DNA of 64,000 nucleotides from Candidatus Daviesbacteria bacterium. GTDB lineage: Bacteria > Patescibacteriota > Microgenomatia > Daviesbacterales > UBA10151. A program made the position numbers and the translations under genes. The stretch spans positions 101,969 through 165,968 of the forward strand of contig JAQTZF010000001.1 of NCBI GenBank assembly GCA_028687915.1, in the 5' to 3' direction. Below the pieces are notes generated by a model. That model did not search any database. It had not been told where the DNA came from and saw only the letters and a program-made list of their open reading frames with translations. The stretch's first letter is position 1, and each line of letters begins with the position of its first letter. Positions 1-44,790 of this stretch are shown one piece after another.

Positions 1-898
1 AGTCATAAAGCCTTTTTCTGACTTTACTTTAGCACCGGAAAAATTATTGTAGGGACCAGAAAACTGCTCAAAAGCAGCTTTGATATTAGATAAATGGGCT
101 TTAGCACTGTCTTTACTGGTGCTGGAAGTAACAATCCTGATAGCTACATTAAACCCAGGTTTAGTAATTTTACTTTCTACAGCTTCCAGCTGTCTGGCGT
201 CTGGTGGTGGTTTAGGAGCATCTGGTTTACCTGGTTCTTTTTCTTTTTTAACAAACTTTTTACCTGCATCTTTCCATTCATTACCAGCTGGAGACATAAC
301 CAGCTGAATCACTGCCCCCTCCCCTGCCTGCATTTTAGCTAAAGCAGCTGTTAAAGCAGACAAAGGATCTGTGGGCAAATCCTTATATGTTTTGATGGGA
401 AAATAATCAGCATTTTTTAAAGTATACATAGCGTAAGCTGTTTGGCCATTTTCTGAAAAAATATTATATTCCGGCATCACTTTAATTTCGGCATCAGGAT
501 AGGCTCCATGAACTTGTTTTTCAATTAAATCCTGGAGTGTTTTGGGTACAGAAATATAAAAAGTAATAGATTCATGTAAAGCTACTAACTCAAAAGAAAA
601 ATGTTGTTGTGGGGTAAGATTCATAAATCCACTTGATTTACGAATAGAATAAAGAGTAGAAATTAGTTGTTCTGTTGCATCAATTTTAATCTCATTATCC
701 CGGGTTACAGCCACTTTAATTAATACTGAATCCAGAGAATCTTTCTCCCGGTTCCGATCACGGTACCAAGCGATAAAATACCTACTAAAATAAATTCCAG
801 CTAAAATCAAAGCTGCCAAAATTAATCCCAAAACAATAAACAGGATAAATGCATTAAATAGTTCTGGTATAGATGTTGCGCTGTCGGTTACTTCCATA
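1..898 (-). CDS. Hypothetical membrane-anchored protein, partial (continues beyond the window start). ATG at 896-898 on the minus strand, N-terminal TM helix, then a soluble domain.
   Basis: Minus-strand frame is open from 898 to position 1 and translates as MEVTDSATSIPELFNAFILFIVLGLILAAL... It is absent from the ORF track because no stop lies inside the window. A stop/start 2 nt from the upstream gene fits an operon. Confidence 0.5.
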
Positions 899-900
899 AA

Positions 901-16709: not shown

Positions 16710-16969
16710 CTCCTCCGGTAGGACTCGAACCTACAACCTTATCGTTACAAGAACCCTCAAGTTACCTTAAGGCTTGGACTATCTCATGATCCACTTGGGA
16801 CCTCAGGTATATAGTCTCTACACATTTAATCCAACTAGGTTGGAAATTTAGCTCGGGATTGTCCTTTCTAAAAAGGAGTTCCCCGAATTAGCCTGATTTT
16901 CCATCCCGTATTACTACGAGAGGCTGCCATCCAAAACAGCGATCTGCTCTACCATTGAGCTACAGAGGA
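16710..16969 (-). tRNA. tRNA-Asn(GUU) interrupted by a group I intron in the anticodon loop. The 5' exon lies at 16936..16969 and the 3' exon at 16710..16747 in plus-strand coordinates.
   Basis: The minus strand reads TCCTCTGTAGCTCAATGGTAGAGCAGATCGCTGT, then 188 nt, then TAACGATAAGGTTGTAGGTTCGAGTCCTACCGGAGGAG+G. The exons assemble into a 72-nt cloverleaf with a 7-bp acceptor stem, the T-loop TTCGAGT and the anticodon loop CUGUUAA, as in canonical tRNA-Asn. The ends resemble E. coli tRNA-Asn (UCCUCUGUAG...GGUUCGAGUCC...GAGGAG). CCA is not encoded. Confidence 0.8.
16748..16935 (-). ncRNA. Group I self-splicing intron, small IC3-like type similar to the Azoarcus/cyanobacterial tRNA introns. No ORF is present.
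   Basis: The exon end GCUGU can pair with the intron segment GCAGC, giving a U.G wobble at the 5' splice site. The intron ends in G. Its core contains GGGATGG...AATTCGGGGAAC, resembling the Azoarcus AAUUCGGCGAAAC segment, and GTGTAGAGACTA, which matches the conserved GUAGAGACUA P7 segment of IC3 introns. Confidence 0.7.
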
Positions 16970-21125: not shown

Positions 21126-21213
21126 GGAGAGGTCGCATAGTGGTCTAGTGCGCCGCCTTGGAAAGGCGGTATACCGTAAGGTATCGAGGGTTCAAATCCC
21201 TCCCTCTCCGCCA
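21126..21213 (+). tRNA. tRNA-Ser(GGA).
   Basis: GGAGAGG acceptor stem, anticodon loop TTGGAAA, long variable arm, T-loop TTCAAAT, and an encoded CCA. Confidence 0.8.
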
Positions 21214-25780: not shown

Positions 25781-25810
25781 CAAAAATCCACCCTTAGGTG
25801 GATTTTTTTG
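25781..25810. terminator. Bidirectional rho-independent terminator hairpin immediately 3' of the tmRNA.
   Basis: AAAAATCCACCCTTAGGTGGATTTTTTT, a perfect 7-bp stem flanked by an A-run and a T-run. Confidence 0.6.
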
Positions 25811-26196
25811 TGGAGACGAGGGTATTGAACCCTGTCTGAATCGTTAATTTAATAACATCTACAAGCTTAGCTAATATATTTTTAAGTACTGGTTGTAACC
25901 TATTAGCAGGAAAACCAATACTTGATTGAGTCATCTTAAACAATTATGGATCAACCAACACCACAATAATAGCAACCTGACTGTTGTACTTATCTTAAGG
26001 ATTCCGTCAGATGGAGATTACCTTAAAATACCCTTATGCGGCTAGAGTGTAACCTGGTTGCCCAAGTACACCAAGCGTAAACACTTGGGATGCTAATTTT
26101 TCTTTAGCATATTTTTTGAAACCATGTTTTACGAATAAGGTTTCCTGTTCGGCTTGCAGTTTTTAAAGTGCCGGTCCGTCGAATCTGTACGTCCCC
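25811..26196 (-). ncRNA. ssrA: tmRNA (ssrA).
   Basis: Minus strand begins GGGGACGTACAGATTCGACGG and ends GACAGGGTTCAATACCCTCGTCTCC+A, a tRNA-like acceptor/T-arm with acceptor pairing GGGGACG/CGTCTCC. The internal tag ORF ends ...GGT TAC ACT CTA GCC GCA TAA (…GYTLAA*). It sits adjacent to smpB. Confidence 0.8.
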
Positions 26197-37295: not shown

Positions 37296-37320
37296 ACAGA
37301 TATTTTACGAGAGATAAACT

Positions 37321-39555
37321 TTAACCTTTTAATCCTTCTTCTAATGCCTTTTTTAAAGTTCCTGTTATAAACTCCCATATAAAGGATCCTGCAAACTTAA
37401 GATCTTTTCTGTGCTCAATCTTATTATTAACCATAATATCCACCACTCTTTGTACCTTTTTTGCTGTAAGATCATCAACAGCTACTTTAAAGTCCCCTGA
37501 TCCAGGAACAAGCTCTGGCCTCCCGGCTCTTATTTCTCTTTCTGCCTGTTCTGCGGCTCGCTGTTTTATCTTTAACTTCTCTTTACCAGAGAGTTTAATA
37601 TCAAAATAATCTGCCAGTACCATTTCTTTTTCCTGCATCTGAATAAATTGCGGAGCATTAGGATCAGTTAAACCAGTCAGTTTATTAACCCCTGCTAAGA
37701 TTTCATCTTCAGATAATCTTTGTTTGCCTGTCGATTCTATTTTCTGTCTAGCATATTTAATAAAGTTCATTAGTAAATGCTTTTTTGTTTCCCAAGATTC
37801 TGCTTTTGAATATTCAAAAGCATTTAAGAGTTTGCCCAATGTATCAAAATTTGGATTTAACAAAAAAGATTCAGCTGAACCGCAGAGTGCTTTTCTACCT
37901 TCCTCTGGTCCATCAACAAACCTTGAGGCCCAAAGACTCATAACTTGCGCCCCCATTGGAATAAAACTGAAATCATTACTCGAAACCACACCTTTTTCTA
38001 CTTTTCTCCTCAAAAGTCTGAAGTTAAGATGGCCCACTCTTTCACCACGATTGTTATCGTTAATCCTTAGGGCTTCATCGCTTTGTTCCTTGGGTCCACG
38101 ATCTTGATATAAGAACCTGCCCTTCTCGTCAATATAATCAGGCGTTGCATCAATTCCTGTTCTTTCTTTAAAAGACGAGTATTCTTTATAAGACAAAAAA
38201 TCAGCTGGAGCGTTTAATCTGACAGTTCTTGTCCAAAAATCACCCCCATAAATATCTACCCCCTCAAGAAGTTCAATTTGGCTTCTCAAAAGTCCGGCTT
38301 CAGCTCTAAGAAATTCCCTAAAACGCATAATTTTTGACATTGGGTAGTCACAACCATCTCTTCCTCCTGCCCAAGTCGGTTTTTCAGGACCATCATAATC
38401 AATCCCAACGGTTTTTTCATTAATTTTCCCCCTATTTACTATCAAATAGTCATACATGATTCCCCTACCAGTAAAGCGGAACATTCTTTCAGCCATGTTT
38501 GAAGCCCATTCATACTCATTTGCTTTATAACGGCTATCTACCAGCTCATCGTAATCTTCATGTCCTTTACTCTTTAAAAACTCCCGAAATACTTTGTCTT
38601 GTTCTTTCTCTGCATCCTCCTGATATTTTGAGAATTTTTGGGTTTCAGAAAGATTTTCAAACTTATCTTCCCTAGAACGATCTTCAGCTTTCTGTTTGTT
38701 TAAATAATCCTCATAATTTCCTACTACTACTGGTATTTCTGCAGGATCTATTTTTAGCTCTAAACAAGCCCTTTGAAGAGCCAAAAACTGTTGAACCTTC
38801 TTACCAAAACCACCTCTTCCTGCTTCTGAATTAGCCCTGGCGAACTCATGACCATGATCTTCATAGTATTGAAGAGCCTCAATAAAAGGATTAAATGTTT
38901 GAGGGGCCTCTCCTTCACCTCTCGCAACCTCTTCTTGCAGCGCGAATAAAACGTCGTACCAGTCCGGCGCTAAACTTAGAGCAGCTCCAGAAACATCTTT
39001 AATGCTTCCTTTATTCTCGTAAGCATTAAAGGCAGAATGAAAAGAAAGCCTGGCTTTAATTTCATTACGCATCCGGTGAGCCCAATCTTTTTGATCTTTA
39101 AACTGTTCGTCAGACAATTGTTCACCTGTAATTGGATCCTTATGTTTTATCTCTAAAGTTTCTAAGATTGCTTGTGCATTTTGAAGATCAATTTGTGTCT
39201 GTTGGGTTAAATCACTCTTGGAAATTTCTACTAATGCCAAAGTGTCTTTAATGTGTTTCTCTGCTTCTTCTCTTTTTTTTGGCCAAACAACTTCAATTGG
39301 ATATTGTTGAGGACCCATAATTTCAATCGCTGTCCAGCCCGGTGGTATATCCTGTCCTTGACGGGTAGTTTTCCGTCCTTCTATTTCTTCTCCCGCGTCT
39401 TCTCCTAATGCGGCATTAATTGCAGCAGCCGCTTCCGGACCATGTATTCTGGCTATTCTTGCTTTTTGCGCTTCAGTAAGAAGCTCTTTTTGATTTTCTC
39501 CACTGGCACCTGTTTCTGTTCCACCTGGTTCTGGCATATGTTTTTCTCTTTCCAT
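37321..39555 (-). CDS. Hypothetical large soluble protein, 744 aa, acidic, with no recognisable domain.
   Basis: Long ORF oriented against the surrounding T4SS genes. No TM helix and no motif identified. Confidence 0.5.
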   Translation of the reverse strand: MEREKHMPEPGGTETGASGENQKELLTEAQKARIARIHGPEAAAAINAALGEDAGEEIEGRKTTRQGQDIPPGWTAIEIMGPQQYPIEVVWPKKREEAEKHIKDTLALVEISKSDLTQQTQIDLQNAQAILETLEIKHKDPITGEQLSDEQFKDQKDWAHRMRNEIKARLSFHSAFNAYENKGSIKDVSGAALSLAPDWYDVLFALQEEVARGEGEAPQTFNPFIEALQYYEDHGHEFARANSEAGRGGFGKKVQQFLALQRACLELKIDPAEIPVVVGNYEDYLNKQKAEDRSREDKFENLSETQKFSKYQEDAEKEQDKVFREFLKSKGHEDYDELVDSRYKANEYEWASNMAERMFRFTGRGIMYDYLIVNRGKINEKTVGIDYDGPEKPTWAGGRDGCDYPMSKIMRFREFLRAEAGLLRSQIELLEGVDIYGGDFWTRTVRLNAPADFLSYKEYSSFKERTGIDATPDYIDEKGRFLYQDRGPKEQSDEALRINDNNRGERVGHLNFRLLRRKVEKGVVSSNDFSFIPMGAQVMSLWASRFVDGPEEGRKALCGSAESFLLNPNFDTLGKLLNAFEYSKAESWETKKHLLMNFIKYARQKIESTGKQRLSEDEILAGVNKLTGLTDPNAPQFIQMQEKEMVLADYFDIKLSGKEKLKIKQRAAEQAEREIRAGRPELVPGSGDFKVAVDDLTAKKVQRVVDIMVNNKIEHRKDLKFAGSFIWEFITGTLKKALEEGLKG

Positions 39556-39672
39556 AAACCCTCCTTTATTACTAAATTACAATCCAAACCTAAAATTGGC
39601 CTACATTATAATCTAAGGCTGAGCTTATATCAAACCCGATCTAATCGGGTTCAAATTTAGTATAGCACAGCT

Positions 39673-40899
39673 TTAATCACACTTCTCTGCAGCATCTTCT
39701 TTTTTAAGGCCACAATGCGGACATACTTCAATACCCTTGCCAGATGGAATATCTCCCTCACATCTGGGACATTTGAAAAAAGCTTCCTGAGCACCTGACC
39801 AGGTTGACATTTCTCCTCCAATTTTATTGCCTGAGAATCCACAGCTCCCACGAAGTCTTGGTGCCCCCATTGCAATTAAGCGCCTCTTCCTTTCTTCATA
39901 TGCTTCATCACCTACAGTTAATTCATTTGACTCAGTTATTTCTCCCCTAAGCAGAGCCAAAGCATAATTATCATGGGCAATCTTATTTCTTTCTGCTTCT
40001 TTAATATCCTGATTCTCTAAAGCATTTAAAACATCCCTTCTAAGGGGCTGTAGCTTATCTAAAAGCCAATGGCAACTATCTTGTTGTCTATTACTATGAT
40101 TTGGATCTAAGGCCTTTATTACGTCCATGTGAGAGTTAAACCTTTCCCCTCCTTTAAGCCAGACAGGTGTTTTTAACAAATCTACATCTGAAGAACTTTC
40201 GCTTAATTGATTTTCTATACTTAAAAACTGATTTAAAAAGTTTGTTGCTTCACTGGTAGTTAGGTGATTTCGGTATGCAATTGCATCTACCCTATCTTCT
40301 AACACCTGAAAAACAAAAGTAAAGTTGTGATCTTTAAACCCATCTTCTTTTTTTCCGGGTTCTGAATGCCAAACAGCAAAATCTCCTTTATCTATTACTC
40401 CAGCAAACAGGGGTTGCTCAATCTTTTCTTTAAAACCAATACACTCTGCTCTTGCTCTTATGCCTTGTCCTTTTTTAAAGCTTTCTAAGATATCTCCATC
40501 TTGTTCATACCCAATGGAGTAAATCTGATTTGGCAAACCATTTTCACCCCTTTTTAATCCATAACTATAGCGGGTGATATTTTCTTCAACAATGTATTCA
40601 CGGGTAAAATACTTGAGGTTTTCATCTACTCTGGTACGCCATGAGGCAATATTAGAACAATTTCGACGGGCGTAAATTTCGTCTTGAAGATTGAATGCTT
40701 GTTGTGTTTCTGTAGCCATATTTTTCCTGCTCGGGATCAAACTACGGTTATGGTTCCTGGCTTCCACAAGCAGTTCACATGCTTGTGGTTTACAGTTGCG
40801 GCACAGCTCTTGAATTTCACAAGATTCCCATTGTCGCCTACGGCGACCCGCCCCTATAAAATACATAAGTATGTTGTTTTTGTCAATTCCTATCAGCAA
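39673..40899 (-). CDS. Hypothetical protein with a C-terminal zinc-ribbon (CPRC...CPHC).
   Basis: 408-aa ORF co-oriented with and upstream of the 744-aa gene. The C-terminus reads FKCPRCEGDIPSGKGIEVCPHCGLKK. The true start may be the internal MATETQQAF. Confidence 0.4.
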   Translation of the reverse strand: MLIGIDKNNILMYFIGAGRRRRQWESCEIQELCRNCKPQACELLVEARNHNRSLIPSRKNMATETQQAFNLQDEIYARRNCSNIASWRTRVDENLKYFTREYIVEENITRYSYGLKRGENGLPNQIYSIGYEQDGDILESFKKGQGIRARAECIGFKEKIEQPLFAGVIDKGDFAVWHSEPGKKEDGFKDHNFTFVFQVLEDRVDAIAYRNHLTTSEATNFLNQFLSIENQLSESSSDVDLLKTPVWLKGGERFNSHMDVIKALDPNHSNRQQDSCHWLLDKLQPLRRDVLNALENQDIKEAERNKIAHDNYALALLRGEITESNELTVGDEAYEERKRRLIAMGAPRLRGSCGFSGNKIGGEMSTWSGAQEAFFKCPRCEGDIPSGKGIEVCPHCGLKKEDAAEKCD

Positions 40900-40983
40900 A
40901 GTACTAGATACATTAAGAAGAAACCAAATTGATCTCTTTTGAGATGCTTGCGAGTAAAGTTTTCACGGGTTATACCTATAACT

Positions 40984-42141
40984 ATGGAACCACACCCTAT
41001 CCCACAAAATGTTACATCTTTTGAATTCCACTTAGTTGGAGACATGACTCTTAAGCAGTTTGCCTATCTTGGTGCAGGCCTGGGAATGGCTTATTTATTA
41101 TATGCCACCATGTTCTTTTCTCTGCCAATTGTGGCTATCCCTTTAATTTTGGTATCTACTATATTAGGCGTGGCATTTGCTTTTGTTCCTATCTACGACC
41201 GGCCATTTGATCATTGGGTCTCAGCCTTTTTTAAAGCAGTTTATTCTCCAACTAAAGCTTCTTTTAAAATAAAATATGACCCTAAACTAAAAGTTGAACC
41301 AAACGATCCTTTCTTAAAGGATAGATTACAATTATACCTTTCAACTATGGGAATGACTGTTAATTTATGGGATAAAGCAGCAACTACTCAACCAAGAACA
41401 ACTCAAACACAATCAACCCCAACAGCCTTACAAGAAAAAGAAGTTGCTCTGGCAGAAAATTTAATTAGTAAAACTATGGATAATATTCAGACACAGACAC
41501 AACCATCAGCCTCAGAAAAATTACCAAGTCAGCAGGAATTAACTAATTTAGTAGAAATGGCAAAACAAGCACAATTATTACAGGGAAAAATTTCAGATAC
41601 AGAAAATTTAATCAAACAAATGACAAGCAGCACCAAGCAAGCAGAAGCATCACAAGTTCAATCTAGTTTAAAAGCCTTGATTCAGCAAACAGAAGAATTG
41701 TATAAAAAAACATCTACTATGAATCAAGCAACTCCTCATACAGCTCAACCTCAAACAGCAGCCATACCACAAGTACCAAGCATTCAGGCTGTTACTCAAC
41801 CAGTTGCCCCTCCAAAAGTAACTGTGGTACAACCACTGGCCCACAAAGAAACACAGGTGGTCTTAACCACCACCCCAAATATCATTAATGGAATGGTAAG
41901 TGACGAAGCTGGAAATTTCATAGAAAATGTCATTGTTATTATTCACGATAAAGAAGGTATTCCTGTTCGAGCATTAAAGACGAATAAGTTAGGTCAATTT
42001 GCCGGAGCAACTCCATTACCCCTGGGTGTCTACACCATTACTTTGGAGAAAGATAATTTTACCTTCCAAACCCTACAACTCACACTGGATAATTCAGTCT
42101 TAGGACCACTGCAAATCATCGCCAAAAAGGGAGGGCAATAG
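40984..42141 (+). CDS. PrgI-family (VirB3-like) T4SS membrane protein fused to a long Q/T-rich linker and a C-terminal carboxypeptidase-regulatory-like beta-sandwich.
   Basis: N-terminus FEFHLVGDMTLKQFAYLGAGLGMAYLLYATMFF...VAFAFVPIYDRPFDHW matches the PrgI family pattern. C-terminus IINGMVSDEAGNFIENVIVIIHDKEGIPVRALKTNKLGQFAGATPLPLGVYTITLEKDNF matches the CarboxypepD_reg pattern (GxVxDxxGxPIxxAxVxL...TDxxGxFxxxxLxxGxYTL). Start taken at MEPHPIP. Confidence 0.55.
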   Translation: MEPHPIPQNVTSFEFHLVGDMTLKQFAYLGAGLGMAYLLYATMFFSLPIVAIPLILVSTILGVAFAFVPIYDRPFDHWVSAFFKAVYSPTKASFKIKYDPKLKVEPNDPFLKDRLQLYLSTMGMTVNLWDKAATTQPRTTQTQSTPTALQEKEVALAENLISKTMDNIQTQTQPSASEKLPSQQELTNLVEMAKQAQLLQGKISDTENLIKQMTSSTKQAEASQVQSSLKALIQQTEELYKKTSTMNQATPHTAQPQTAAIPQVPSIQAVTQPVAPPKVTVVQPLAHKETQVVLTTTPNIINGMVSDEAGNFIENVIVIIHDKEGIPVRALKTNKLGQFAGATPLPLGVYTITLEKDNFTFQTLQLTLDNSVLGPLQIIAKKGGQ

Positions 42142-42143
42142 AA

Positions 42144-43043
42144 TTGACCACCAGCCAACAATTTATTCCTATTCAGGATGTTAATAAGGATTTAGTTTTT
42201 CAAAAAGATGGCAGTGTCGGCATTATTATCTCTGTTTCAGCAGTTAACTTTGCCCTGCTGTTTGAAACAGAACAAATATCTATCATTGATTCTTTTGCCG
42301 GGCTTTTAAATTCTTTATCTTTTCCTATCCAAATAGTTATCTATTCTAAAATCATGGATGTGTCATCTTATTTACACACTATTGATAATGCTTTAGCAAA
42401 ACAAACCAATCCTAACTTAAAAAAGATGACTTTAAGCTATCGCGGGTTTGTGGAAAAAAGCATTAAAGATAATAACGTGCTGGATAAAAAGTTTTATGTT
42501 TGTATTAAATTAACCTCTCTTGAGTTAGGTTTATTACCTTCTAACATGGAAGAAAAAACTAAAAAGGTGGCAACATTGCTTGAACCACGAAGAGATCATT
42601 TAATCAGGCAATTAGAGCGTTTAGGATTAAAAGCCAAACAACTATCTACAGAGGAGATTATTAAACTCTTTTATGAAATATATAATCCACCCATTACTGC
42701 TTCTGTTGCCCTGCCTGTACAAAGCAATATTAAATCTAGCCCCTTACTGGAAATTAATAAACCAGAAGTAATTCCTCAAACCCCTAAAGTAGAGGATAAT
42801 TTACCACCAAAACTGCGACCAATTAGAGCTAATTTGACTCAGCAAGTATCAACAACAGTAGTTCCACCTGCTCCTACTCCTGCACAAGCACCAATTACAC
42901 CACCAGTCATTCCAAAACCACCCACTCCGGTTGCTGCTCCTTTAACTAACCTATCTCCTATCACAGCAGCTAATTTAACATCTAATGCTTCTACTTTTAC
43001 ATCTCCTTTTGTGGTTGAAGAACTACCTGATGACGGACCCTAA
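42144..43043 (+). CDS. T4SS protein resembling the N-terminal domain of VirB4/CagE/TrbE, possibly the detached N-terminal part of a split VirB4, with a Pro/Thr-rich C-terminal tail.
   Basis: FIPIQDVNKDLVFQKDGSVGIIISVSAVNFALLFETEQISIIDSFAGLLNSLSFPIQIV follows the VirB4 N-terminal domain pattern (F-p--i-dg-i--kdGs-g-vl-v---n--l-s--E---l---f---Ln-L--piQi). The last 80 aa are low-complexity P/T/A. Confidence 0.4.
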   Translation: MTTSQQFIPIQDVNKDLVFQKDGSVGIIISVSAVNFALLFETEQISIIDSFAGLLNSLSFPIQIVIYSKIMDVSSYLHTIDNALAKQTNPNLKKMTLSYRGFVEKSIKDNNVLDKKFYVCIKLTSLELGLLPSNMEEKTKKVATLLEPRRDHLIRQLERLGLKAKQLSTEEIIKLFYEIYNPPITASVALPVQSNIKSSPLLEINKPEVIPQTPKVEDNLPPKLRPIRANLTQQVSTTVVPPAPTPAQAPITPPVIPKPPTPVAAPLTNLSPITAANLTSNASTFTSPFVVEELPDDGP

Positions 43044-44790
43044 ACAAAAACAATTAACTTTTGAAGATGCGGTTGCCCCCTATGAAGTAGAGGTTGATTT
43101 TTCGTTCCTAAAAATTAACCACCGCTATTTCCGTTCCTTTTTTGTATCTTCTTATCCGCGCTATGTTGAACCAAATTGGCTGGAGCCATTAATTTCATTT
43201 GAGCACTCAATGGTTTTATCAATGTTTATCTACCCTACCAGTTCAGCTGGCATTTTGGATGATTTAAAAAGAAAGATTGCTGAAATGGAAGCCACTATTC
43301 AAACTGATCAGGAAAGGGGGAGAATTGTTAATCCTACGGTTACAGTAGCTTTGGATGATGCCAAAGCATTACAGGAGCAACTTGCCAAAGGATCGGAAAG
43401 ATTTTTCCAGTTTAGTTTATATATTAATGTGCCCTCAGACTCTATTGAAGAATTAAATAATAAGTCACAGCTGGTTCAATCTACACTAGGCAGTATTTCT
43501 ATTGATTCTCATCCACTTTATTTACAAATGAAAGAAGGGTTTGAAAGCACACTGCCAATTGGACAAGATCCTTTATATCTTGCCCACAATATGGACACTA
43601 CCTCACTTGCCACCACATTTCCTTTTGTTTCCTCAGAGCTAACCTCACCAGATGGAGTTATTTATGGCATTAATGCCCATAACGATTCTTTAATTATTTT
43701 TGATAGGTTTAGCCAGGAAAACGCAAATTCTGTAGTTTTTGCAACAGCCGGTGCCGGTAAATCATATTTTGTAAAATTAGAATCTCTCCGTTCTTTAATG
43801 TTGGGCACAGAAGTAATTATTATTGACCCGGAAAAAGAATATGTAGATTTAGCCAAAGCTGTAGGGGGAGATTATATAAATTTTTCCACCACTTCACCTG
43901 TAAAGATTAATCCTTTTGACTTACCAGATATTTTAAATAGCGAAGAAGATGAATTAGGAAGAAAGATTTTATCTTTAACTGGATTTTTACGCTTGGTTTT
44001 AGGAGACCTCACTGCCAACGAAGTAGCAGTTTTAGATAGAGCCTTAAATGCCACTTATAAGTTAAAGGGGATTACAGCAAATGTTTTTAATAAAACAGAT
44101 CCTGCCAGTAAAATAAAAGTTGAGTCCCCGTTGATGGAAGATTTATATAAAGTGCTTATTGGCATGGAGGACAGCCTGGCGGGAAGCCTAGCTATAAGAT
44201 TGGAAAGGTTTATCAAAGGTTCTTTGGCTGGTATTTTTTCTGCTCAATCAAATATTAATATTCAAAACCCTTTTACTGTCTTTTCTGTTCGTGAATTACC
44301 AGACCAGTTAAGACCATTAGCTATGTATTTAATCCTTGATTATATTTGGACAAAAATCCGCAGAGAAATTAAAAAAAGGATTTTAGTGGTGGATGAGGCT
44401 TGGTATATGATGAAATACCCTGATTCTGCTTCTTTTTTAGTAGAAATGGTTAAAAGATCTAGGAAATATTACCTTGGAGTAACCACTATTAGCCAGGATG
44501 TAGAGGATTTCCTAGGACAAGACCGGGGCAAAGAAATCATTTCCAACTCAGCAATGCAGATATTATTAAAACAAGCACCTGTGTCTATTGAAAAAATAGG
44601 CGCTGTTTTTAATTTATCTCAGGGTGAAAAAAGACTGCTAACCACGGCTGGAGTAGGACAGGGGTTGTTTTTTGCTGGAAATGTACACATTGCCATGTCT
44701 ATTGTCGCCTCAGAAGAGGAGCATATCTTAATCACAACAAACCCCCGAGAAATATTGGAACGCCAGGAAAAAGAAAAAGGAGTTAGCTAA
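43030..44790 (+). CDS. virB4: VirB4-family T4SS ATPase (TraC/TrbE/PrgJ-like).
   Basis: N-terminal INHRYFRSFFVSSYPRYVEPNWLEPL, the classic VirB4 segment; Walker A ATAGAGKSYFVK; Walker B ILVVDEAW; C-terminal NPFDLP and TISQDVEDF motifs. Start taken at MTDPKQ (ATG 43030), overlapping the previous ORF by 14 nt. Confidence 0.8.
   Translation: MTDPKQKQLTFEDAVAPYEVEVDFSFLKINHRYFRSFFVSSYPRYVEPNWLEPLISFEHSMVLSMFIYPTSSAGILDDLKRKIAEMEATIQTDQERGRIVNPTVTVALDDAKALQEQLAKGSERFFQFSLYINVPSDSIEELNNKSQLVQSTLGSISIDSHPLYLQMKEGFESTLPIGQDPLYLAHNMDTTSLATTFPFVSSELTSPDGVIYGINAHNDSLIIFDRFSQENANSVVFATAGAGKSYFVKLESLRSLMLGTEVIIIDPEKEYVDLAKAVGGDYINFSTTSPVKINPFDLPDILNSEEDELGRKILSLTGFLRLVLGDLTANEVAVLDRALNATYKLKGITANVFNKTDPASKIKVESPLMEDLYKVLIGMEDSLAGSLAIRLERFIKGSLAGIFSAQSNINIQNPFTVFSVRELPDQLRPLAMYLILDYIWTKIRREIKKRILVVDEAWYMMKYPDSASFLVEMVKRSRKYYLGVTTISQDVEDFLGQDRGKEIISNSAMQILLKQAPVSIEKIGAVFNLSQGEKRLLTTAGVGQGLFFAGNVHIAMSIVASEEEHILITTNPREILERQEKEKGVS

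Follow-up and report, generated by a model that had tools for sequence, protein, structure and literature searches.

A riboswitch-preceded protein family with a probable role in cobalamin salvage, and its separately promoted neighbour, in a type IV secretion-like locus of Candidatus Daviesbacteria

We analysed two minus-strand open reading frames (ORFs) at positions 37321-40899 of a 64,000-nucleotide stretch (hereafter the window) of contig JAQTZF010000001.1 from a Candidatus Daviesbacteria bacterium, which are flanked on both sides by plus-strand genes of a type IV secretion system (T4SS)-like locus. The initial annotation of this DNA had taken the pair for a two-gene operon of unknown function, and was right that both genes are oriented against all of the flanking T4SS-like genes. 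The evidence as a whole is best explained, with moderate confidence, by two adjacent and separately promoted genes, the first of which (designated here SMALL) functions in cobalamin (B12) salvage with a PduO-type adenosyltransferase, while the second (LARGE) is specific to the locus. Three independent lines tie the SMALL family to cobalamin handling: its association with two classes of B12 riboswitch, its operon position and a gene fusion.

Results

The start of SMALL and its cobalamin riboswitch

Counted from a TTG codon, the ORF of SMALL (39673..40899, minus strand) encodes the 408-aa protein originally described. The true coding sequence, however, is 39673-40719 (minus strand), which starts at ATG 40719 and specifies 348 aa; the deposited hypothetical protein PHQ59_00775, also 348 aa long, has the identical sequence, and the start also agrees with the alignment of the family. 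The 408-aa reading is therefore over-extended, its codons 1-60 being promoter and cobalamin riboswitch aptamer, and the N-proximal Cys residues attributed to the longer protein are the riboswitch core read as amino acids (GAGCTGTGCCGCAACTGTAAA, translated as ELCRNCK). The database protein P0007 (366 aa) carries the same spurious extension, in that its annotated N-terminus, MIRELCRNCRV..., is a translated riboswitch core. The leader contains the following features:

40858..40886, minus strand: promoter-like site of SMALL, TTGACA-17-TATTTT, 10/12 matches, whose end lies about 5 nt short of the structured region of the aptamer
40733..40863, minus strand: cobalamin riboswitch aptamer RF00174, with core GCUGUGCCGCAACUGUAA and B12 box AGCCAGGAACC (Rfam, alignment to the model)
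40720..40732, minus strand: expression platform with a CCCGAGCAGGA element, in which AGGA is the Shine-Dalgarno sequence (SD), 5 nt before the ATG (leader sequences)

RF00174 was detected at 37.1 bits against a gathering score of 31.5 (E 8e-6; full window, both strands, 4227 families), and the match spans the full-length model (1-189). The 3′ edge of the aptamer is 13 nt from ATG 40719, with the AGGA in between. The CCCGAGCAGGA element is kept in 9/9 Daviesbacteria-type leaders, where it serves as the SD itself or precedes an SD-sequestering hairpin; the relatives' loci L001, L002, L003 and L005 have both this hairpin and a U-tract after the element (AACCUCC...GGAGGUUUUUU). A TTGACA box was seen by eye at the equivalent place in the leaders of L003, L004 and L008. 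Its score, its location in a same-strand 5′ leader with an expression platform and its conservation upstream of orthologues all place the RNA in RF00174 (clan CL00101, which it shares with AdoCbl-II, RF01689), and in no way is it an unusual member. The leader has the layout of the usual OFF switch, which predicts that cobalamin is bound and that expression is then repressed. To our knowledge, the gene downstream lies outside the known B12-regulon classes (biosynthesis, transporters, B12-independent isozymes) and belongs to an uncharacterised family.

Distribution of B12 riboswitches upstream of the SMALL family

RF00174 lies directly upstream of the SMALL orthologues in L001, L002, L003, L004, L007 and L008, with scores of 32-58 bits, and falls slightly below the gathering score in L005 and L006 (30.8 and 30.6 bits, respectively). 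In L002, SMALL stands alone, outside any T4SS locus and without LARGE, and still has RF00174 at 48 bits. The protein at the SMALL position of L008 (L008:8879-9910, plus strand) is very divergent: it has 19% identity, was missed by the family hidden Markov model (HMM) and does not align at the Cys of the GSCG loop described below. Nevertheless, a strong cobalamin riboswitch (51 bits) still precedes its gene, and a LARGE homologue follows it.

Among more distant homologues (23-27% identity), both classes of B12 riboswitch occur upstream of the gene, AdoCbl-II in L010, L012, L014-L016, L020-L022, L026, L028, L030, L032, L036 and L038, and RF00174 in L027, L034 and L035. AdoCbl-II is found before PduO-SMALL in one annotated locus and before SMALL in another. 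Fifteen of the 30 loci from the genome scan described below carry a B12 riboswitch above the gathering score. Across 41 loci, 24 B12 riboswitches reach this score, all of them on the gene strand and immediately upstream of SMALL or PduO-SMALL, and none was found elsewhere in the approximately 540 kb scanned. The gene downstream of the riboswitch is SMALL in every riboswitch-bearing locus, includes PduO in some and is never nrdJ. Literature searches returned nothing on B12 riboswitches in the candidate phyla radiation (CPR)/Microgenomates or on the family of SMALL.

SMALL is collinear with nrdJ and pduO in other lineages

Three homologues with 23-27% identity are encoded in the order nrdR, class II ribonucleotide reductase (RNR; Ribonuc_red_lgN/lgC plus TSCPD), PduO-type Cob_adeno_trans and SMALL (Pfam labels), and the PduO and SMALL genes overlap by 19 nt in L010 and by 4 nt in L011. 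A scan of one genome per GTDB species gave a further 30 loci (L013-L042), in Levybacteria, Roizmanbacteria and other Microgenomates, with a single locus labelled Parcubacteria; these were mapped with HMMs built from the three annotated loci. NrdJ, PduO and SMALL are collinear in 25 of these 30 loci, together with NrdR in 21; in the other four of the 25 the contig starts inside NrdJ; L015, L017, L018 and L033 begin at PduO. The exceptions to collinearity are L037 (PduO 3 kb away), L038 and L039, along with L025 and L040, which have no upstream sequence. Moreover, an in-frame PduO(17-197)-SMALL(195-551) fusion of 554 aa is encoded at L017:241-1902 (plus strand) in a Candidatus Microgenomates metagenome-assembled genome; this fusion may be an assembly or frame artefact.

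In 18/30 loci, of Levybacteria type, SMALL is followed by a membrane-anchored ATPase resembling type IV coupling proteins (T4CP-like; DUF8128/DUF87/TrwB_AAD_bind), and in 14 of the 18 a gene of about 137 aa (p137) lies between the two. Outside these 30 loci, the ATPase gene also follows SMALL at:

L011:9111-11898: T4CP-like ATPase after SMALL
L012:9115-11901: T4CP-like ATPase after SMALL

An extended -10 box, TGnTAnnAT, is conserved just before p137, which makes it less likely that this gene and the T4CP-like gene are co-regulated with SMALL. A homologue of this ATPase is cut by the start of the window (1-900, minus strand). A tmRNA gene is located about 1 kb downstream of SMALL in L016, L022, L023 and L027.

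The SMALL protein has an invariant Cys loop and a Cys4 knuckle

The coding sequence and its two Cys-containing signatures are located as follows:

39673..40719, minus strand: SMALL, 348 aa, an alpha/beta domain and then a helical one, followed by the GSCG loop, which is disordered, and the Cys4 knuckle (AlphaFold2 (AF2) model, pLDDT 78)
39832..39855, minus strand: signature loop LRGSCGFSG, codons 289-296, with Cys293 invariant in three alignments
39709..39777, minus strand: Cys4 knuckle F-x-CPRC-x12-CPHCG, codons 315-337, followed by a conserved KED (alignments)

SMALL is a cytoplasmic, acidic protein (isoelectric point (pI) 5.4) with no transmembrane (TM) segment. Its close relatives, 22 proteins about 340 aa long, have identities of 38-71%, and a profile search of 1.84 billion cluster representatives (E<1e-3) extends the family to at least 349 clusters at 50% identity; most of the 349 representatives are full length (340-400 aa), and the named members are from CPR/Microgenomates. 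Over 48 diverse members, E41, R88, C293 and the four knuckle Cys are invariant, while an SPPG motif and a Cys by the C-terminus (Cys347 in SMALL) are nearly so. The loop is predicted to be disordered, residues 290-312 having an AF2 pLDDT <50, and a small beta knuckle comes after it. In the wider family the residue after the Gly of the loop is Ser or Thr (GSCGST) and not aromatic.

The C-terminal CPRC...CPHC reported in the initial annotation is present and is invariant in the family, and its two CxxC pairs at a short spacing conserved family-wide (CPRC-x12-CPHC) are those of a zinc-ribbon/rubredoxin-like knuckle. In 9/10 relatives, a stretch of ~35 residues at the end of the protein shows a weak match to the rubredoxin-like Fe(Cys)4 domain at the C-terminus of nigerythrin (NF045783; positions 152-200), and the family profile also weakly matches the zinc ribbons of the ribosomal and RNA polymerase proteins eL43, bL32 and RPB12. 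The features shared with rubrerythrin/nigerythrin and with zinc ribbons are two CxxC knuckles 12 residues apart and the aromatic and Pro/Gly context (W-F-x-CPxC...CPxCG); however, the matches have E values of only 1e-3 to 3e-2 over ~35 residues, and the remainder of SMALL is unrelated to rubrerythrins.

That neither protein of the pair has an assignable family was borne out by searches of Pfam, NCBIfam, PADLOC, PHROGs and the PDB. For SMALL, single-sequence and per-member scans gave no Pfam, NCBIfam, PADLOC or PHROGs family, and sequence, profile and model searches of the PDB gave no sequence or fold match beyond generic zinc ribbons. In the PDB searches for the pair, a match to the designed protein 7op4 covers 60 residues only and is not meaningful. 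No sequence, profile or fold similarity was found between SMALL and B12-binding domains, MMACHC/CblC, PduS, CobR or BtuM, and the DxHxxG motif is absent in 78/78 family members checked. The likeness of RGSCGFSG to RVxG[FYW] suggested a glycyl-radical domain. This idea was rejected on several counts: there is no Pfam or NCBIfam match and no fold match to pyruvate formate-lyase (PFL) or NrdD, neither SMALL nor LARGE has a CxxxCxxC activase motif, and the residue after the Gly is not aromatic.

LARGE is a separate unit confined to the T4SS-embedded arrangement

The intergenic region and LARGE itself comprise:

39633..39651, minus strand: hairpin AACCCGAU-UAG-AUCGGGUU after the SMALL stop codon, a possible terminator, in this window only
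39605..39633, minus strand: promoter-like site of LARGE, TTGATA-17-TATAAT, 11/12 matches, the best of the region (promoter match)
37321..39555, minus strand: LARGE, 744 aa (ORF, relatives, model)

SMALL and LARGE are two real minus-strand genes, as first annotated, but they probably do not form a single operon and are better described as a heterogeneous pair with separate promoters, since the 117-nt gap between them holds both the hairpin and the 11/12 promoter match, promoter boxes are visible by eye in 8/8 SMALL-LARGE gaps, and SMALL and LARGE are separated in L044 by two genes on the opposite strand. The boxes take the form TTGATA...TATAAT in the gaps of L003, L004 and L008 and TTGACA right after the stop codon in L001, L005, L006 and L007. 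The hairpin at 39633-39651 was not called by a simple terminator scan because its T-run is weak. A second, conserved hairpin (UAGGCCAAUUUUAGGUUUGG-like) is found in the predicted LARGE leader between the -10 box and the SD (window 39560-39604, minus strand) and also in L003, L004 and L008. The genes inserted in L044 (L044:1062-1675, minus strand) encode proteins of 143 aa, bearing a DSGSD motif like that of aspartic proteases, and of 60 aa, and may represent a small mobile or toxin-antitoxin-like element.

LARGE follows SMALL in L001, L003-L006, L008 and L044, and is absent from 30/30 PduO-type loci and from L002. Co-occurrence with T4SS loci, a question raised at the outset for the pair, thus holds for LARGE, which was found only in the T4SS-embedded arrangement, and holds in part for SMALL, which is also found elsewhere. 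The 627-aa protein encoded downstream in L007 has no detectable HMM relation to LARGE, and its likeness is limited to the MxxER..M.EG start and the C-terminal hydrophobic tail. Twelve database relatives of LARGE, of 657-857 aa, were identified, and a metagenome scan gave no further contig. The two proteins diverge at different rates, with 38-71% identity for SMALL and 30-66% down to undetectable for LARGE.

As described initially, LARGE is an acidic (pI 5.4), soluble protein of 744 aa with no TM segment. It is mostly helical, with a disordered first 60 aa and variable insertions, and it contains the conserved polar motifs FNPF-x-A-x-QYYEDHGHEF, WAGGRDGCDY, DxxGDFWTR and LLNPNF and a conserved, moderately amphipathic C-terminal helix. 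Its conserved His, Glu, Asp, Cys and Arg residues suggest that it may be an enzyme. Its length had been thought far above what is typical of such a genome, yet the window contains ORFs of 947, 707, 681, 676, 627 and 609 aa. Searches with 13 members gave no Pfam match, and LARGE has no Walker A motif, no fold match and no PDB sequence or profile match; by profile, Walker A and TM topology it corresponds to none of the T4SS components VirD4/T4CP, VirB4, VirB6, VirB8 and relaxase. We also rejected LARGE as a B12-independent RNR, given a helical model with no barrel, no PFL/RNR match and a promoter of its own.

Because it is absent from the PduO-type loci and L002 and has diverged far more rapidly than SMALL, LARGE is most probably a cytoplasmic, lineage-specific factor of the T4SS-like locus in Microgenomates, outside the B12 regulon proper. 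It may have an accessory role, docking to the membrane or to the T4SS through its conserved C-terminal helix, or it may itself be a substrate.

Layout of the surrounding T4SS-like locus

The Pfam-confirmed T4SS genes adjoining SMALL are:

40939-42141, plus strand: PrgI
42144-44790, plus strand: TraC-like gene and VirB4 P-loop gene

On the high-coordinate side, PrgI, the TraC/TrsD-like gene and the VirB4 P-loop ATPase are succeeded by genes for a 573-aa and a Big_5 protein, beyond which lie dnaN and dnaA. On the low-coordinate side there is an array of short plus-strand ORFs, the counterparts of which in relatives are T4SS_pilin, together with a secreted 681-aa protein and a polytopic 571-aa membrane protein. 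The pair had been said to separate VirB6 from PrgI/VirB4; PrgI and VirB4 are supported by Pfam, but no HMM supports a VirB6 identity for the 571-aa neighbour, which we describe as a polytopic membrane protein only.

The VirB4-like function is split between a 299-aa TraC/TrsD-like gene (42144-43043, plus strand) and an overlapping 601-aa P-loop gene (42985-44790, plus strand). This split is kept in all relatives and fits the TrsD-plus-VirB4 pairs of patescibacterial MPF-FATA-like T4SS loci, which have been described near dnaA/dnaN (Quinonero-Coronel et al., 2025; PMC12102498). The locus studied here shares with those loci PrgI (VirB3-like), TrsD/TraC-like plus VirB4 genes, pilin arrays and proximity to dnaN/dnaA, and differs in that neither SMALL nor LARGE matches a known T4SS component; term searches of that article found no mention of cobalamin, riboswitch or ribonucleotide reductase. 

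LARGE and the plus-strand, VirB6-like 571-aa gene converge, with 25 nt (37296-37320) between their stop codons, which leaves no space for separate terminators. The tight convergence is repeated in relatives, with gaps of 0-10 nt in L001 and L003-L008 and of 29 nt in L044. Elsewhere in the window there are a group I intron match at 16755-16945 (minus strand), a tmRNA gene at 25808-26196 (minus strand) and a cluster of tRNA genes at 21126, 23511, 23602, 24482 and 24646. Further group I intron matches lie at L012:14348-14540 and L014:12139-12321 (64-84 bits for the three).

Discussion

A proposed role for SMALL in cobalamin salvage

We propose that SMALL is a cytoplasmic cobalamin-salvage partner of PduO and represents a new family, an assignment we regard as probable because riboswitches target the gene, because it is translationally coupled to pduO and in one case fused to it, and because it clusters with the gene for an adenosylcobalamin (AdoCbl)-dependent RNR. 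That it carries out reductase or corrinoid-processing chemistry specifically is a tentative suggestion. In the proposed mechanism, SMALL would be transcribed from the promoter at ~40886-40858 through the cobalamin riboswitch. When AdoCbl is plentiful, the folded aptamer would occlude the SD (or, in relatives, a terminator or sequestor hairpin would form) and SMALL would be switched off; when B12 is scarce, SMALL would be produced. Together with the PduO-type ATP:cob(I)alamin adenosyltransferase it would then convert scavenged corrinoid into AdoCbl for the class II RNR. The Cys4 (rubredoxin-like) centre and the Cys of the GSCG loop could reduce cob(II)alamin to cob(I)alamin by one electron or, as an alternative to reduction, could remove the upper ligand, possibly via a Co-S intermediate, and the processed corrinoid would be handed to PduO.

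A parallel can be drawn with cobalamin reductases and processing partners of adenosyltransferases, namely PduS (a partner of PduO), CobR and the human proteins MMACHC (CblC) and MMADHC (CblD), but it is an analogy of role, taken from gene context. The proposed common ground is that SMALL is coupled or fused to PduO, is B12-regulated and possesses a loop Cys and a Cys4 site, which could carry an electron or ligate Co. SMALL is not a member of these families, however: it has neither sequence nor fold similarity to them and lacks a flavin or 4Fe-4S motif.

Several points weigh against this assignment. The function proposed for SMALL is drawn from gene context; the protein has no DxHxxG, flavin, radical-SAM or Walker A/P-loop motif, and the nigerythrin match hints at electron transfer while the sequence is compatible with either Fe or Zn at the knuckle. 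Seventeen of the 41 loci have no riboswitch at the gathering score, although two of these miss it only narrowly and in at least three there is no upstream sequence. Neither nrdJ nor pduO was found in the window, so that B12 use by this organism is not evident there. Read-through from SMALL may occur in the window, and LARGE would then be partly B12-regulated. Finally, SMALL adjoins T4SS-type genes in two layouts, the divergent PrgI/VirB4 operon and the T4CP-like ATPase of the 18 loci.

Alternative explanations

The position of SMALL two genes downstream of nrdJ in 25/30 loci could mean that it serves NrdJ directly, as a thiol or metal reductant or as a chaperone for loading or repairing the cofactor, with no part in PduO-dependent salvage. 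The conserved Cys on a flexible loop and near the C-terminus are in keeping with this, and RNRs have C-terminal redox tails that these Cys recall, a lead only. However, the riboswitch governs SMALL, at times with PduO, and never nrdJ; the helper of a B12 enzyme should not be off when AdoCbl is abundant; and the fusion partner is PduO rather than NrdJ. We therefore consider a direct NrdJ helper unlikely.

We give the same unfavourable rating to the view that the pair is a T4SS-linked module, either a substrate or effector together with a chaperone or adaptor for it, or cytoplasmic accessory parts of the machine, with B12 as no more than a deployment signal. The place of the pair between the PrgI/VirB4 and pilin/VirB6-like operons is kept in all T4SS-embedded relatives; LARGE is confined to that arrangement, evolves fast in the manner of host-facing proteins and has a conserved C-terminal motif; and in other lineages a T4CP-like ATPase comes after SMALL. 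Against this, the whole dnaA-to-SpoIID region is syntenic, so that co-location may be inherited, SMALL occurs with no T4SS gene at all in L002, and NrdR, NrdJ and PduO are the only proteins identified beside it in loci such as L016, L022, L023 and L027. Moreover, a conserved extended -10 box of its own precedes the T4CP-like pair, and neither SMALL nor LARGE carries a signal peptide or is homologous to known T4SS parts or effectors. Synteny independent of T4SS loci, which according to the initial annotation would count against its reading, is thus found in part, in the NrdJ-PduO-SMALL order and in the location of L002 outside a T4SS locus. The occurrence of SMALL in two T4SS-adjacent layouts may reflect more than inherited synteny; an inherited neighbourhood is nevertheless the simpler reading of this proximity, given the separate -10 box of the T4CP-like pair and the syntenic origin-proximal region.

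A less probable variant is that in these host-dependent Microgenomates B12 acquisition is physically coupled to the T4SS-like machine: in the cytoplasm, SMALL would receive or process corrinoid drawn from the host by way of that machine, with LARGE, or in other lineages the T4CP-like ATPase, as docking partner, and would feed it to PduO. If true, such coupling would explain why SMALL stands beside T4SS-type genes in two unrelated arrangements, and would provide a nutrient-piracy function for the relaxase-less patescibacterial T4SS.

It is slightly less probable again that SMALL is a B12-independent substitute or B12-sparing factor made only in B12 shortage. OFF-type B12 riboswitch logic and the architecture of the leader suit genes of this kind, and metE and nrdDG are expressed only under B12 shortage in other bacteria. 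The 348-aa protein, however, shows neither the catalytic fold nor the motifs of known RNRs or methionine synthases, and its coupling and fusion to B12-requiring PduO argue that it acts with B12.

The weak similarity of the C-terminal knuckle to ribosomal and RNA polymerase zinc ribbons, and the divergent orientation of SMALL relative to the PrgI operon, would fit a nucleic-acid-binding zinc-ribbon regulator that operates under B12 limitation, with the T4SS operons as possible targets. We consider this very improbable: the protein contains no helix-turn-helix and no DNA-binding domain of another kind, its large conserved body, alpha/beta plus helical with invariant E and R and an SPPG motif, looks enzyme-like or ligand-binding, and the PduO fusion is hard to account for.

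The inserted defence or toxin-antitoxin module suggested at first has nothing beyond unassigned function and opposite orientation in its favour and can safely be set aside: PADLOC and PHROGs found nothing, the G+C content and the third-codon-position G+C (GC3, 0.26-0.27) are native and equal to those of neighbouring genes, with none of the compositional deviation that the initial annotation had proposed to look for, riboswitch control and nrdJ/pduO linkage speak for another function, and the orthologous position is kept in every T4SS-embedded relative examined, across genomes with SMALL identities of 38-71%, which argues that it is not an insertion. As for the suggestions of cargo or effector, regulator and defence taken together, they are not supported for SMALL and find partial support for LARGE.

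Implications

CPR/Patescibacteria are not known to make B12, yet many of them depend on an AdoCbl-dependent ribonucleotide reductase for their DNA precursors. The locus brings to light a widespread family for which neither Pfam nor NCBIfam has a model and the PDB offers no structural relative, and SMALL is a concrete, clonable candidate for a missing step beside PduO, which may be corrinoid reduction, dealkylation or escort. The analysis also corrects what is likely to be a recurrent annotation error, in which B12 riboswitch cores are taken for Cys-rich N-termini (ELCRNCK), as in at least one database protein, P0007. Moreover, it indicates that the "unknown pair" of Microgenomates T4SS loci is heterogeneous, consisting of one gene that would belong to the B12 regulon and one fast-evolving orphan, LARGE, which would be the real T4SS-associated unknown.

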